DNA from: an uncultured delta proteobacterium
GTDB lineage: Bacteria > Desulfobacterota > Syntrophorhabdia > Syntrophorhabdales > WCHB1-27
Assembly (NCBI GenBank): GCA_963810935.1
Contig: CAWEPK010000012.1
Span: 256,001-320,000 of the forward strand
Direction of reading: 5' to 3'
DNA length: 64,000 nucleotides
Part shown: positions 5,461-18,236 of the stretch, piece by piece
Numbering within the stretch: the stretch's first letter is position 1
Layout: every line of letters begins with the position of its first letter
Program-made: the position numbers and the translations under genes
Notes under the pieces: generated by a model
Seen by the model: the letters and a program-made list of their open reading frames with translations, nothing else
What the model was told of the DNA's origin: nothing
The model's database searches: none

Positions 5461-5724
5461 ATGGTCGCCACCCGCAAGAAACTCGCCGCAATGCGCAATA
5501 ACCCGCGAGGCAACTGGAAAATTGAGGACTTACACACGGTGGCCGCGGATTGGGGCATCGAGATAAGGAATGCGGGAGGGAGCCATCATATTTTCTCCCA
5601 CCCCGATATCGATTTTCACCTGACCGTCCCGGCCCGCAGGCCCATTAAATCTGTATATATAAGGAAGTTTATCGATATGATCGATGAGATCAACGATAAA
5701 ACAGCAAAAGGGGTGACTAAATGA
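5461..5724 (+). CDS. hicA: HicA family toxin
   Basis: GGSHHIFSHP and PARRPIKSVYI motifs; ATGA overlap with hicB. Confidence 0.85.
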   Translation: MVATRKKLAAMRNNPRGNWKIEDLHTVAADWGIEIRNAGGSHHIFSHPDIDFHLTVPARRPIKSVYIRKFIDMIDEINDKTAKGVTK

Positions 5725-6175: not shown

Positions 6176-6313
6176 GACGAGCCGAGGTTCATGGTGATGG
6201 GCAGGATCGGTGAAAAGCATTGGTCGGCCGTCATCACTTATCGGGCCGGGAGGATCAGAATAATCTCGGTGCGCAGGTCGCGGAAAGAGGAGGTCGATCT
6301 TTATGAAGGCTGA
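6176..6313 (+). pseudogene. brnT: 5'-truncated BrnT family toxin
   Basis: Manual translation DEPRFMVMGRIGEKHWSAVITYRAGRIRIISVRRSRKEEVDLYEG*; N-terminal half absent. Confidence 0.8.
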
Positions 6314-15062: not shown

Positions 15063-16295
15063 TCATAAATGGGGGCCAAGACGGTCCACGCGGGCAAGCT
15101 GCGGGAACAATTTCATCCACGCCAGGGCGGTCACTATGGTGCCTACGCCGCCGATAATCACTGCGGGCACCACCCCGAACCAGGCCGCGGTAACGCCCGA
15201 CTCGAACTCCCCGAGCTGGTTTGACGTCCCGATGAACATCGAGTTTATGGCGCTCACTCTCCCGCGCATGGCGTCCGGCGTCTCCAACTGGACGAGGGAT
15301 TGGCGTATCACCACGCTGATTACGTCCGCCCCGCCGAGCACGACGAGGGCGGCAAGGGAGAGGAAGAACGACCTCGATACGCCGAAAACGACCGTAGCCG
15401 CGCCGAAAACGATCACTGCCGTGAACATTTTGCGGCCCGCAGCGCGGTGCAGCGGATAGCGACCGAGCAGCAGCGACATGAGCAGGGCGCCGCCGGAAGG
15501 CGCGCCGCGAAGGAGCCCCAGCCCCGCCGGACCCACAGCCAGGATATTTTTTGCATAAACAGGCAGCAGGGCCGTTGCCCCGCCGAGGAGCACAGCAAAC
15601 AGGTCGAGGGAGATGGCCCCGAGGATCGCGGGCTTGCTCTTTACGTAGGTGATGCCTGCGAAAATCGAGCGTAGATCGACGGCCTCGACTTTGCGCACCT
15701 TCCGCGTTGCTTCGATAAGGCTGATGAAGACGCACCCGCATACGTAGAGGGCCGTGACCGTTACGTAGGCGTGGAGCGGCCCTGCCGCATAAACGAAGCC
15801 GCCGATGGCGGGGCCGAGTATGTTGGCCGTCTGCGTCGAGGAAGCGGCGCGGGCGACTGCCCGCGGGAAGACTTGCGGCGTCACCAGGTTCGGGAGGAAG
15901 GCGTTCATGGTAGGGTGCTCGAACGCGCGGGCGCCGCCTATGACGAAGGCGACGGCGAGGAGGACGCGGGCGTCGAGCCGGCCGGTAAGGCACCCGGCGG
16001 TAAGCGCGGCGGCCGCAAGGGCCGCAATGAGCTGGCACACCCGGATGACCGAGCGGCGCTCGCAGCGGTCTGCCACGTGGCCGACGACGAGGGTAAGAAG
16101 GAAGGCAGGCGCGAATTGGGCAAGCCCGACGAAGCCGAGGTAAAGGACGCTGCCGGTGAGGGCATACATCTGCCAGCCGACCGCAACGGCGAGCATCTGG
16201 TAGGCCAGTGTGGACGAGACACGGCTGAACCAGAAGCAGACGAAACTTCTGTTCTGTGAGAGTGCGCGCGCGTCGTCAGAGTCGGAAGAAGTCAT
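15063..16295 (-). CDS. MFS transporter (MFS_3/EntS-like)
   Basis: About 12 hydrophobic segments; GHVADRCERR and TPDAMRGRV motifs. Confidence 0.9.
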   Translation of the reverse strand: MTSSDSDDARALSQNRSFVCFWFSRVSSTLAYQMLAVAVGWQMYALTGSVLYLGFVGLAQFAPAFLLTLVVGHVADRCERRSVIRVCQLIAALAAAALTAGCLTGRLDARVLLAVAFVIGGARAFEHPTMNAFLPNLVTPQVFPRAVARAASSTQTANILGPAIGGFVYAAGPLHAYVTVTALYVCGCVFISLIEATRKVRKVEAVDLRSIFAGITYVKSKPAILGAISLDLFAVLLGGATALLPVYAKNILAVGPAGLGLLRGAPSGGALLMSLLLGRYPLHRAAGRKMFTAVIVFGAATVVFGVSRSFFLSLAALVVLGGADVISVVIRQSLVQLETPDAMRGRVSAINSMFIGTSNQLGEFESGVTAAWFGVVPAVIIGGVGTIVTALAWMKLFPQLARVDRLGPHL

Positions 16296-16404
16296 GGCGC
16301 TCCGTGTCTGTGAAGTTTTCGTAGTCTACTACAGTGTGTGGGTGAAGTTAAAGGGTCAGTGGGTAGGCCGGGGAGGATTGGTAGTGGGTCAGTTTGAAAG
16401 AGGA

Positions 16405-16592
16405 ATTATTAGATAAGCAAAGAGGAGTCTTGTAGTTAGTACAAAGCTCCTCTTCTGACTACACATTGATTAACATCCCGGGAGGATTCGTAATTCACAC
16501 GAACCCCCCCGCTTCACCATACGGGATTGCAATCTCCACTATATGGCGGCCTCCGAGGAGGACTTAAGCCCGATGCCGAAGCAGAGCGGGTA
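16405..16592 (-). ncRNA. Putative structured RNA downstream of the pemK-like toxin
   Basis: Closing stem CCCGCU/AGCGGG encloses several hairpins including a cUUCGg loop, then an 11-bp hairpin and a terminator-like hairpin; folded by eye. Confidence 0.5.
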
Positions 16593-16610
16593 CTTAACTA
16601 GAGTACTACG

Positions 16611-17030
16611 TCAAAGGTAACATGTCAAGTGCGAAAGCGCAAGGGTGTTTAACACGCACTTTCTTATGTCCTTTAGTTGTGTTTCGGTAATGATTTTCTC
16701 AACATACTCACGTCTTCCAGCACGATCTTTGCCGATATAGGGCAAAGAAAGCCTACTCAGCGACACGGTAGCCAACATATCCCCCTTTACCCAGTGAAAA
16801 CGAGAATCGAAGGGCGGGGGTAACGGGTCATCAAGAAGTAATTTACAATGATATGGCATAACAGGGACGGGCGTCGTAGTGCTCAACGGTAATACCGTAC
16901 ATAGACCACCTCTCCCTCTGAATCTGGGAGAGATAACAACTGCAGGCCGCTTTTTTACCATTTCTGGCGGAATTCCATCAAAATTACAAATGACAATGGT
17001 TCCTACTTGGGGATGATAAGGAAGAGGCAT
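16611..17030 (-). CDS. PemK/MazF-fold endoribonuclease toxin (YifN-like)
   Basis: PPEMVKKRPAVVISP, TVLPLSTT and WVKGDMLATVSLSRL motifs; GGAGA RBS; TGTTATAAT and a second TATAAT upstream. Confidence 0.85.
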   Translation of the reverse strand: MPLPYHPQVGTIVICNFDGIPPEMVKKRPAVVISPRFRGRGGLCTVLPLSTTTPVPVMPYHCKLLLDDPLPPPFDSRFHWVKGDMLATVSLSRLSLPYIGKDRAGRREYVEKIITETQLKDIRKCVLNTLALSHLTCYL

Positions 17031-17294
17031 CGTATTCTCCAAGGCTTATTATACGGTATGGCCGTTATTATAACAAGGGAATGATATCCTTCATCACTGA
17101 TCGGGCGCGTAGGTTCATGTCGTTCGGTCGCTTCTTCTTTGCCATGCTAAATGTAGCACGAGCGGTTAAACATGGTAAGCATCAGGATAAGAAAAGAAGA
17201 CCAAACTGACCCACTACCGGGGGGACTATGTACCTTGTGTGGGTGCATATAGTATGTTAGACTAACTCACCTACTCGTTTCAGGGGAGATCAAG

Positions 17295-18236
17295 ATGAAA
17301 AACAATTGCTTTAAGATAGGCCTTATACTGGCCGCCTTCGTGGTCTTGTTCGCCTTCGTCCTCCAGATTGACTCTTACGCTCGGATCGGCGGCGGCGGCT
17401 CAATGGGATCGCGCGGCTCGCGCAGCTTCAGCCCTCCGGGCGGGTCTTCGCCTTACAGACCGGTTACGCCGTCGCAGTCCTACGCACCCAGCCCGTATCA
17501 ATCGGGAGGCGGCAGCTTTTTCAGGAGCATGATGGGCGGCATGGCGGGCGGCTTCCTGGGCGGCATGCTCTTTCGCAGCCTCGGCTTCGGGGGCGGATGG
17601 GGCATGGGCGGCGGCGGGGGCGGCATCGGCCTCTTCGAGATTATCCTCGTCGTCGTCATACTTTACGGCCTCTACCGCTTCATGAAGAAGCGGAGGGCGG
17701 CGAGCGAGACGTATTACGAGTCCAACACATATGCGCCACCCGTCTACGAGCAGCAGCCGGCATACGGCGCGCCGGACCAGCAGTCGGACGTGGAGATGGG
17801 GCTTCGCTACATAAGGCAGATGGACGCATACTTCCAGGAAGGCGCCTTCCGCGACATGTGCCTGGATACGTTCTTCAAGATCCAGGGCGCCTGGGGCATG
17901 CGCGATATGGCGCCCGTCAGGGGCCTCCTTACGGATGAGATGTACAGCGCCATAGAGAGCGACGCAGCGAAGCTCCGGGCGGACCACAGGGTCAATAAGC
18001 TCGACAACATCGCCGTGCGGTCCACGGACATCGTCGAGGCGTGGCAGGAATCGGGCAGGGACTATATCACGGTGCGCTTCTACGCCAATCTGGTCGACTA
18101 TACGGTAGACGATAAGACGGGCGACGTAGTGTCGGGCAGCAAGACGGACCCGGTCAAGTTTGAGGAATACTGGACGTACACGCGGCAGGTCGGCAGCAAC
18201 CCGTGGCAGTTGTCGGCCATAACGCAGCCGCAATAA
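17295..18236 (+). CDS. Tim44-like domain membrane protein
   Basis: Gly-rich N-terminus ([12 protein letters not shown]), TM segments, C-terminal FEEYWTYTR...WQLSAITQ. Confidence 0.85.

Follow-up and report, generated by a model that had tools for sequence, protein, structure and literature searches.

A 64,000-nucleotide (nt) stretch of the genome of an uncultured delta proteobacterium (contig CAWEPK010000012.1, positions 256,001 to 320,000, here G000:C12:256001-320000; this whole stretch is called the window in the following) contains a unit of 839 base pairs (bp) in which an intact gene for a toxin-like protein of the MazF fold is followed directly by a gene for a small structured RNA. Relatives of the protein were collected from a one-genome-per-species collection, where they are encoded in at least 589 of at least 599 pattern matches, and the locus analyses reported here concern the best 80 of these at least 589 related loci (designated by L and a number). 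The RNA follows the toxin gene in every one of the 79 related loci whose sequence continues beyond it, and in the window as well; the locus L052 is cut by a contig end. It is highly probable that the downstream RNA is genuine and has a functional link to the protein. We give an even chance to the more specific proposal that a toxin of the MazF type proper is neutralised here by a single-copy, separately transcribed small RNA (sRNA) encoded downstream of it. The unit itself is, with high confidence, a non-autonomous derivative of an IS1-family insertion sequence (IS), which has lost the transposase, presumably by internal deletion, and has kept both ends and the two-gene cargo.

The toxin and the RNA encoded behind it

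The features of the pair in the window are:

17037..17076, minus strand: expression signals of the toxin gene, with the ribosome binding site GGAG at 17040-17037, a promoter-like TTGTTA-17 nt-TATAAT at 17076-17048 and a second TATAAT at 17072-17067
16611..17030, minus strand: YifN/PemK-family protein of the MazF fold, 139 amino acids (aa), intact, presumed endoribonuclease toxin (from PF02452, homologues and a structure model)
16600..16628, minus strand: putative sigma-70-type promoter of the RNA, with the -35 box TTGACA at 16628-16623, a 17-nt spacer and the -10 box TACTCT at 16605-16600
16512..16594, minus strand: conserved structured RNA core, about 83 nt, three hairpins (covariance model R1, 92.6 bits, E 2e-24)
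16477..16510, minus strand: extra GC-rich hairpin between core and terminator, present in the window copy only; in most relatives the terminator comes directly after hairpin P3
16410..16454, minus strand: predicted terminator of the sRNA and toxin transcripts, a hairpin at 16420-16454 and then UUUGCUUAUCU (from the fold and homologous loci)

The conserved stretch behind the toxin gene was detected with nhmmer in 76 of the 79 downstream segments, beginning 3-62 nt past the stop codon. A covariance model, R1, with 83 positions and 24 base pairs was built from 49 non-alphaproteobacterial copies (alignment A2, MAFFT/RNAalifold). It matches 80 of 81 sources, and the single miss, L036, has only 2 nt of sequence beyond the toxin gene. 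The RNA begins with P1, a bulged CCCG...CGGG hairpin with a CUC/U bulge and a 3-bp tip. A UUAAG junction, containing the AA referred to below, leads to P2, a hairpin of 5-6 bp, and this is followed by P3, an 8-bp stem which bears a GGA-GAUUGCAA-UCC hairpin. In the window, the stretch 16400-16594 of the minus strand folds with z = -3.9 into the same three hairpins and two more.

The pairing is supported by covariation. In the seed alignment compensatory changes occur in 16 of the 24 pairs and 96.9% of the cells are paired; one pair of P3 is A-U in 24 copies and G-C in 23. None of 500 column shuffles reached the observed value of any of five measures, and when the partner register is slid by 1-3 columns the pairing falls to 32-42%. 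In the 81-row alignment compensatory changes are present in 21 of the 24 pairs, but the fitting of this alignment to the model biases it in the model's favour. Several unpaired bases are nearly invariant: the two C of the bulge (99% each), the U of the bulge (100%), the junction A (100%) and CAA in the loop (99-100%).

The RNA also appears to have transcription signals of its own. When 61 loci were aligned on the first base of the RNA, TTGACA was found at -35 to -30 (T 78, T 78, G 66, A 65, C 61%), separated by a 17-nt spacer from TAnAnT at -12 to -7 (T 63, A 75, A 55, T 81%), and G was present in 90% at the expected start, which in the window is G16593. In most loci the -35 box lies within the last codons of the toxin gene, and this probably accounts for a conserved "LT" near the C-terminus of the toxin. 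However, loci in which the stop codon is found 20-45 nt further upstream (L045, L051, L053, L055, L086, L097) retain the boxes as well. Thus they are not a by-product of coding. Nearly all loci have a GC hairpin and UUUUGCUUUU after P3. Since the gap of about 17 nt between the stop codon and the RNA holds no terminator, transcripts of the toxin gene must include the RNA.

The 139-aa open reading frame (ORF) matches the Pfam family PF02452 (PemK_toxin) with E 3.1e-11 and 43.9 bits against a cut-off of 23.1, and this is the sole Pfam family at E <= 1. It contains the motifs RPAVVIS and PLSTT. Its start is assigned to the ATG at 17030 and not to the TTG at 17042, because the homologues begin at the same MPL..HP. 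There are 189 homologues of about 140 aa, the best with 69% identity, and several are named "YifN (PemK superfamily)" or "type II ... PemK/MazF family toxin" in their sources. Across 26 members 25 columns are invariant, R28 and S50 included. The family profile aligns residues 3-54 to Escherichia coli MazF (3nfc/5ck9) and places R28 (of RPAVV) on R29 and S50 (of PLSTT) on T52, which we take to be the catalytic residues of E. coli MazF. The toxin is about 30 residues longer than the latter, and no further domain was found in the toxin family. With 18.9 of the 120 bits set for the NCBIfam MazF equivalog, it does not qualify as an E. coli MazF orthologue.

The AlphaFold model of the toxin has a pLDDT (predicted local distance difference test) of 91.5 and a pTM (predicted template modelling score) of 0.85. 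Its top Foldseek matches in the PDB are all MazF (Mycobacterium tuberculosis, Staphylococcus aureus, E. coli, Bacillus subtilis), with probability 1.00 and target TM-scores (template modelling scores) of 0.65-0.84; a ToxN-type structure is not among the matches listed. Judged by sequence and model, the toxin is presumably a sequence-specific endoribonuclease. The promoter-like site ahead of it matches in 10 of 12 positions and was called by the promoter scan, and the GGAG lies 6 nt ahead of the ATG.

A protein partner was sought among all ORFs of at least 35 aa within 700 bp of the toxin gene, clustered over the 80 loci. No conserved partner was found in these 80 loci, and nothing conserved lies upstream. 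The recurrent groups of ORFs either fall over one downstream stretch, in mixed frames and on both strands (13, 11 and 7 loci), or are the IS1 transposase (4 loci) or small unrelated groups. Since a conserved nucleotide sequence lies beneath the recurrent downstream "ORFs", in the window too, we regard them as chance readings. As the protein antitoxin that defines a type II pair is absent, the toxin does not belong to such a pair.

A sequence-only reading of this DNA had described an intact 139-aa PemK/MazF ORF with the motifs named above, TATAAT boxes and a ribosome binding site ahead of it, no MazE/PemI-like antitoxin ORF, and structured, non-repetitive non-coding DNA 3' of the toxin. All of this is borne out, the absence of the antitoxin ORF both for the unit and for the 80 loci. 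The comparison of downstream regions and the covariation test that it had proposed gave the conserved three-hairpin RNA. Its further inference that this RNA is the antitoxin is plausible. As to the parallel that it drew with the fold of ToxN, the toxin comes closest in fold to solved MazF structures, and no ToxN structure is among the matches listed. As to repeats, Tandem Repeats Finder (minimum score 30) returned 0 rows for the unit, and no direct-repeat family covers the RNA.

The linkage between RNA and toxin is strict. The genome of the window holds one strong RNA match and one gene of this toxin, about 17 nt apart; two canonical PF02452 PemK/MazF genes lie elsewhere in it (G000:C12:428713 and C8:316744). 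Five other whole genomes have exactly one RNA and one toxin gene each, 20 nt apart. A sample of 150 other genomes from the phylum of the window yielded no copy of the RNA, which fits a recent import; a 25.9-bit match in this sample lies inside a large ORF and was dismissed as chance. Among 150 genomes of another class there was one new RNA match (33.9 bits), which has a 41%-identical toxin gene directly upstream and TTGAAA and TATAAT boxes before the RNA. Matches to the toxin also occur on three plasmids; on both of the two that were fetched, one from Polaromonas and one from Aquitalea, the toxin gene is followed by the RNA (88 and 62 bits). Among cultured bacteria, carriers include Nitrosomonas oligotropha Nm45, strains of Caulobacter and Acidithiobacillus concretivorus.

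Eleven Vibrio records of 13-15 kilobases (kb), filed as phages, contain a 37-40% identical homologue after an S24/LexA-like repressor, at the end of the record, with an R1 score of 9 bits. In these Vibrio cyclitrophicus records (L123 = PQ189291.1 and 10 similar ones, Vinavirales) the YifN/PemK homologue is the last gene, near an excisionase and a P2-type replication gene, a position typical of prophage-borne defence genes. In several loci (L018, L032, L042, L060) the toxin-RNA module lies 150-400 nt from transfer RNA (tRNA) genes on the opposite strand (Phe, Thr/Lys, Pro, Leu). Genes for tRNAs are frequent insertion sites of islands.

Two variants of the RNA were seen. At L065 (896-984) there is an orphan second copy of 57.5 bits, 330 nt beyond the first, with no PemK gene ahead of it; it stands behind a small ORF, which is presumably DUF2283-like. 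In three alphaproteobacterial loci (L090 3444-3640, L092 3444-3650, L093 3440-3640) the plain terminator after the core is replaced by a T-arm, a 3' acceptor strand and CCA. A few bases past the CCA there is a 5' acceptor strand, succeeded by a D-arm-like piece and then by a terminator. The arrangement resembles a circularly permuted unit of the tRNA or transfer-messenger RNA (tmRNA) type. This extension scores 29-35 bits with the Rfam model tmRNA_permuted (threshold 47), and ARAGORN calls nothing. The sub-threshold tmRNA/YrlA matches in L090 and L092 belong to the extension and not to the core. With its CCA-ending extension the RNA may mimic a natural tRNA-like or tmRNA-like target of the toxin.

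The RNA probably represents a new family. The Rfam search that the sequence-only reading had also proposed gave, with Rfam 15, 0 matches at E <= 10 on window positions 16200-17400 and no family at threshold over 23 related loci. The sole Rfam family touching the RNA core is RF02353 (BjrC68, an sRNA of Bradyrhizobiaceae), with 22-23 bits over P3 and terminator in L026 and L054 (gathering score 39). Homology to it was rejected: comparable sub-threshold matches are spread throughout five genomes and occur in 9 of 14 control genomes. Because the model gives such matches across genomes and controls alike, we regard this one as a generic hairpin with terminator. The passages of PMC4842269 and PMC5471319 on BjrC68 give no function for it. 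In the portions of the full-text literature that the search returned, including PMC5737381, PMC3879964 and bioRxiv 10.64898/2026.10.21.760802, no RNA linked to YifN/PemK genes was found described; an unnamed listing in the supplements of motif catalogues is possible.

A related layout exists in E. coli K-12 at yifN (b3777; L121, NC_000913.3, 2900-3030, minus strand, in the ppiC-yifN spacer), where TTGACA-17 nt-GATAAT overlaps the end of the gene. The layout is that of the window: behind the promoter come a short RNA, in this case with a CUAAGU junction and one hairpin, and then a terminator. Unlike in the window, yifN is annotated as a pseudogene and the RNA has no P3, scoring 3.8 bits with R1. 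What stands behind E. coli yifN looks like a relic of the toxin-linked RNA gene, either reduced or decayed.

The IS1-family element that carries the pair

The unit spans 16380-17218 and is delimited as follows:

16380..16396, no strand: left terminal inverted repeat GGTAGTGGGTCAGTTTG; an identical 17-mer is present in the transposase-bearing element of L023
17202..17218, no strand: right terminal inverted repeat CAAACTGACCCACTACC, the exact reverse complement of the left repeat
17068..17145, minus strand: 25-codon stub, in the same place and direction as the end-proximal ORFs of L015, L023 and L062
16371..16379: left flank GGGAGGATT, with a possible degenerate duplicate GGGGGGACT at 17219-17227 (7/9 match; 4/8 at 8 bp)

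All 17 of the 17 bases of the terminal inverted repeats pair. The GC content of the unit is 0.43-0.49, against 0.61-0.73 in the flanking genes, which are an MFS transporter gene (15063-16295, minus strand) and a Tim44-like gene (17295-18236, plus strand). Read on the minus strand from its right end, the unit consists of the stub, the promoter-like site, the GGAG, the 139-aa ORF and about 215 nt without a notable ORF. Besides the toxin no ORF of more than 48 aa lies entirely within it, and the 839 bp contain no transposase gene. Hence it is non-autonomous. It is single-copy in its own genome.

Its relatives identify the family. A 3.2-kb, intact-looking element in the same genome (G000:C12:420148-423339; L015 2149-5340) has ends, GGTAGTGTCTCAGTTTG, that match those of the unit in 15 of 17 positions. 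It encodes an 88-aa basic ORF adjoining one end, a 201-aa ORF that belongs to no known family, a protein with a helix-turn-helix (HTH) and an M78 peptidase domain, and a 278-aa transposase. The best NCBIfam model for this transposase is IS1 (NF033558; E 6e-18, 65.5 bits, cut-off 100 bits), and it passes Pfam DDE_Tnp_IS1 (PF03400) with 28.1 bits against a cut-off of 24.1. As it stays below the NCBIfam cut-off for IS1, it is assigned to a distant IS1 subgroup. Between L015 and the unit there is no interior homology; the ends alone match, and both toxin and RNA are missing from L015. The HTH and M78 (ImmA/IrrE-like) peptidase protein of L015 matches the 'spr1629 family repressor/antitoxin' model below its cut-off.

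Elements with both a transposase and the toxin-RNA pair occur elsewhere. In L023, a deltaproteobacterial metagenome-assembled genome, the right end is identical to the 17-mer of the window and the left end agrees in 16 of 17 positions, and the order is end, 88-aa ORF, 334-aa ORF, IS1-family transposase, toxin, RNA, end. In L062 (Nitrosomonas oligotropha) the order is end, toxin, RNA, transposase, 347-aa ORF, 77-aa ORF, end. The ends of L062 and L094 match the 17-mer in 15 of 17 positions; in L094 and L096 such an IS end lies 146-171 nt beyond the toxin stop codon, and in L034 and L096 the transposase is immediately upstream of the toxin. With the L015 transposase as query, tblastn found copies in L023, L034, L062 and L096 only. 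The same or nearly the same ends thus bound elements with an IS1 transposase in the window's own genome and in other phyla.

The IS1 family is characterised by ends that begin with GGT and by target duplications of 8-9 bp. The window unit and its relatives resemble it in their GGTA-starting ends and, in the clean and the full-length relatives respectively, in their 8-bp duplications and their single-ORF DDE transposase. The non-autonomous derivatives of such IS include elements resembling miniature inverted-repeat transposable elements (MITEs) and IS with passenger genes; the unit is not a bare MITE but retains a functional-looking cargo, and its own target duplication is degenerate. Both clean-ended relatives have perfect 8-bp duplications, GAATATTC in L015 and TGTTCCGG in L023. 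A match of 7 in 9 between flanks has a chance of 0.002 for random 9-mers of the window; however, the relatives duplicate 8 bp, and at this length the window flanks agree in 4 of 8 positions only. We therefore regard the target duplication of the window as weak evidence. An empty site was not seen in 4 metagenome runs (DNA, one study), in which contigs span the left junction unchanged, none crosses the right junction and no joint appears.

The stub shares M-x-K-K-..-K-R-P-x-D-x-N...A with the 77-88-aa end-proximal ORFs of the full-length relatives, at 25-36% identity over 25 aa, which is a short stretch. From this similarity, which is only suggestive, it is probably the remnant 5' end of the basic ORF that adjoins the inverted repeat in those relatives. 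The simplest history is that an element of the L023 type lost everything from about codon 22 of the small ORF through the transposase by internal deletion.

For the element, too, most of the sequence-only reading stands: an 839-bp unit with perfect 17-bp terminal inverted repeats, a stub of 25 codons, and an IS without transposase, to which the relatives now add the same ends and, in several cases, a toxin gene adjoining one of them. It had suggested a search for autonomous copies with such ends, and transposase-bearing elements with the same or similar ends exist, for instance in L015 and L023. Its 7/9 degenerate target duplication is correct at 9 bp and is weakened at the 8-bp length of the relatives. 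The stub, which it had considered as a possible antitoxin, is most likely a truncated ORF of the IS. Its remark that other toxins in the window have decayed fits a partial HicA match at 5554-5670, which with 21 bits stays under the cut-off and spans profile positions 12-52 of 58, and also a BrnT match at 6176-6292 that covers the C-terminal half of the profile only (positions 39-77).

Two further observations concern the IS group. A solo IS end, AGTAGTGGGTCAGTTTGAAA, is found at G000:C13:5858-5877 (L016), beside fragments that by eye resemble an IS110-family transposase, and is probably a broken copy from the same group. The motif TTAACCGCTC occurs 30-40 nt inside the IS ends of the window (17155-17170) and of L016 (5885-5900), and directly upstream of the transposase gene in L023 (2060-2075). 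It may be a binding site of the transposase or of a regulator.

Possible functions of the RNA

The interpretation that we favour, at even chances, is that the RNA is the antitoxin of the toxin and binds it directly, as ToxI binds ToxN in type III systems. The unpaired bases, that is CUC and U in the bulge of P1, the AA of the junction and GA...CAA in the loop of P3, would then fill the groove in which the MazF dimer binds RNA, or block access to it. Each toxin mRNA would carry one copy of the RNA in its 3' part, and the internal promoter would add more, so that the RNA would be in excess. If the locus were lost or its transcription stopped, be it by loss of the element or by phage shut-off, decay of the RNA would release the toxin, and growth would come to a halt. 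As cargo of an IS, a plasmid or a prophage, the pair could thereby act as an addiction or abortive-infection module. Toxicity, binding of the RNA to the protein, neutralisation and instability of the RNA are what we infer in this scheme. A toxin-antitoxin pair is the most economical reading because of the MazF fold, the missing protein antitoxin, the adjacent RNA with its promoter, the invariant bases, the minimal unit and the occurrence on plasmids and prophage-like elements.

Several points weigh against antitoxin function of the RNA. In passages of PMC5086642 the known toxin-binding RNA antitoxins are upstream tandem repeats that are processed by toxins of the ToxN type, whereas the RNA described here is single-copy, lies downstream and is paired with a different toxin family. 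In the window its -10 box is poor (3 of 6 positions), and the scan called neither a promoter nor a terminator for the RNA, so that both are assigned from the family. Among distant relatives the RNA is reduced or barely detectable (3.8 bits at E. coli yifN, 9 bits in the Vibrio elements), and the loci with the strict linkage are the best 80 of at least 589. Given the two canonical PemK/MazF genes elsewhere in the genome, neutralisation by a protein in trans is conceivable. Finally, strict linkage is also what one would expect of an RNA that serves the protein as substrate or cofactor in a non-toxic function.

The last point leads to a reading that we consider rather unlikely: RNA and MazF-fold protein would form a dedicated pair outside toxin-antitoxin biology, with the RNA as substrate or cofactor of the protein and not as its inhibitor. 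The protein would process, stabilise or use the sRNA, for example in a ribonucleoprotein for sensing or targeting RNA of phage or host, or in the maturation of a regulatory sRNA. The strict one-to-one linkage and the invariant unpaired bases suit any specific RNA-protein pair; the tRNA-like, CCA-ending extension in the three alphaproteobacterial loci suggests a role beyond simple inhibition; one locus has a second copy of the RNA without a toxin gene; and homologues stand beside S24/LexA-type repressors in prophage-like elements, a common site of defence genes. However, the residues that align with the catalytic ones of MazF are conserved, the family has no other domain, and the module, which rides alone on a minimal mobile element and is also found on plasmids, has the typical ecology of an addiction module. 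Distinctly less probable is that the RNA governs the amount of toxin without binding the protein, either as an element of stability or processing in the 3' untranslated region (UTR) or, similar to type I systems, as an sRNA acting in trans on the toxin start. Read-through of the toxin transcripts into the RNA across the short gap would allow this, and duplexes of the RNA with its own toxin start are predicted to be slightly stronger, at -26.0 kcal/mol, than those formed by 6 randomly chosen non-cognate RNAs, at -24.7 kcal/mol (n=69, Wilcoxon p=0.017). Yet the difference of 1.3 kcal/mol is small and confounded by the shared GC content of cognate pairs, and duplexfold ignores the folding of the RNA itself. 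Moreover, the conserved loop and bulge bases are the same across phyla whereas the toxin leaders are not conserved, and a mere 3'-UTR element needs no separate consensus promoter.

That a protein holds the toxin in check and the RNA has nothing to do with neutralisation is very improbable. The protein could be an antitoxin of the MazE type from canonical PemK/MazF loci, of which the genome has two by their PF02452 genes, or the 25-aa stub, whose ORF lies just upstream of the toxin in the same direction. But the stub is missing from other loci, no upstream ORF is conserved in the 80 loci, and the stub aligns with the N-terminus of a longer IS-associated ORF; a module that moves between phyla on IS elements, plasmids and prophage-like elements cannot rely on a resident MazE either. 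Least probable of all is that the RNA belongs to the IS, as a regulator or guide of IS1-family transposition, and accompanies the toxin by coincidence. The module does abut an IS end in the window, L023, L062, L094 and L096, and L034 has an IS1-family transposase directly upstream. In 75 of the 80 related loci, however, there is neither an IS end nor an IS1 transposase within the sequence examined; the RNA tracks the toxin gene and not the transposase, and L015, in the same genome as the window, has the IS without toxin or RNA. This distribution brings the explanation close to refuted.

Relation to known toxin-antitoxin systems

The pair shares with the type II systems MazEF, PemIK and Kis-Kid the family and fold of the toxin, the Arg of RPAVV and the Ser/Thr of P-x-S/T-T. 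It differs from them in that neither the window nor the 80 loci have a gene of the MazE/PemI type upstream or downstream of the toxin, and in that the toxin is longer. MazF is among the most thoroughly studied toxin families, and to our knowledge all its characterised members are paired with protein antitoxins.

If the RNA neutralises the toxin, the closest parallel in mechanism are the type III systems (ToxIN, CptIN, TenpIN). As outlined in parts of PMC5086642, these likewise consist of an endoribonuclease toxin with a Kid/MazF-like core and an adjacent RNA as inhibitor, a role that is here proposed, and they have no protein antitoxin; they are found on mobile elements and are tied to plasmid stability and phage defence (PMC5086642). 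The architecture is different. According to the same parts of PMC5086642, the type III RNA consists of short repeats in tandem and is encoded ahead of the toxin; one promoter serves both, with a terminator between RNA and toxin, and the toxin cuts the array into units. In the window the RNA is single-copy and downstream, has a promoter of its own, and the sole terminator follows it. It has three hairpins and no predicted pseudoknot, and its partner is a PF02452 protein nearest in fold to MazF proper, whereas the type III toxins are ToxN, CptN and TenpN. The pair is thus alike in its proposed working principle and departs from type III in all the structural criteria laid down in the portion of PMC5086642 that deals with them.

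A large subfamily of MazF proteins, annotated throughout as "type II" toxins yet without a neighbouring antitoxin gene, is thus tied to a conserved sRNA in all of the 79 evaluable related loci, which come from several phyla. We know of no accepted RNA antitoxins acting on the toxin protein other than the type III repeat arrays. We tentatively propose, at somewhat less than even chances, that the MazF toxins of the YifN type constitute a new and widespread class of toxin-antitoxin systems made up of protein and RNA, with relatives of the toxin in at least 589 species genomes, and that the pair, which with about 650 bp fits as sole cargo, addicts the host to an IS1 element without transposase.

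If this is true, the annotation puzzle of the seemingly solitary toxins would be explained and a new architecture of RNA-based toxin control would be added to those known. Rfam would gain a family, and a compact pair for the recognition of an RNA by a protein would become available. Being the sole cargo of a minimal IS, the pair would also bear on how insertion sequences and their non-autonomous derivatives persist.

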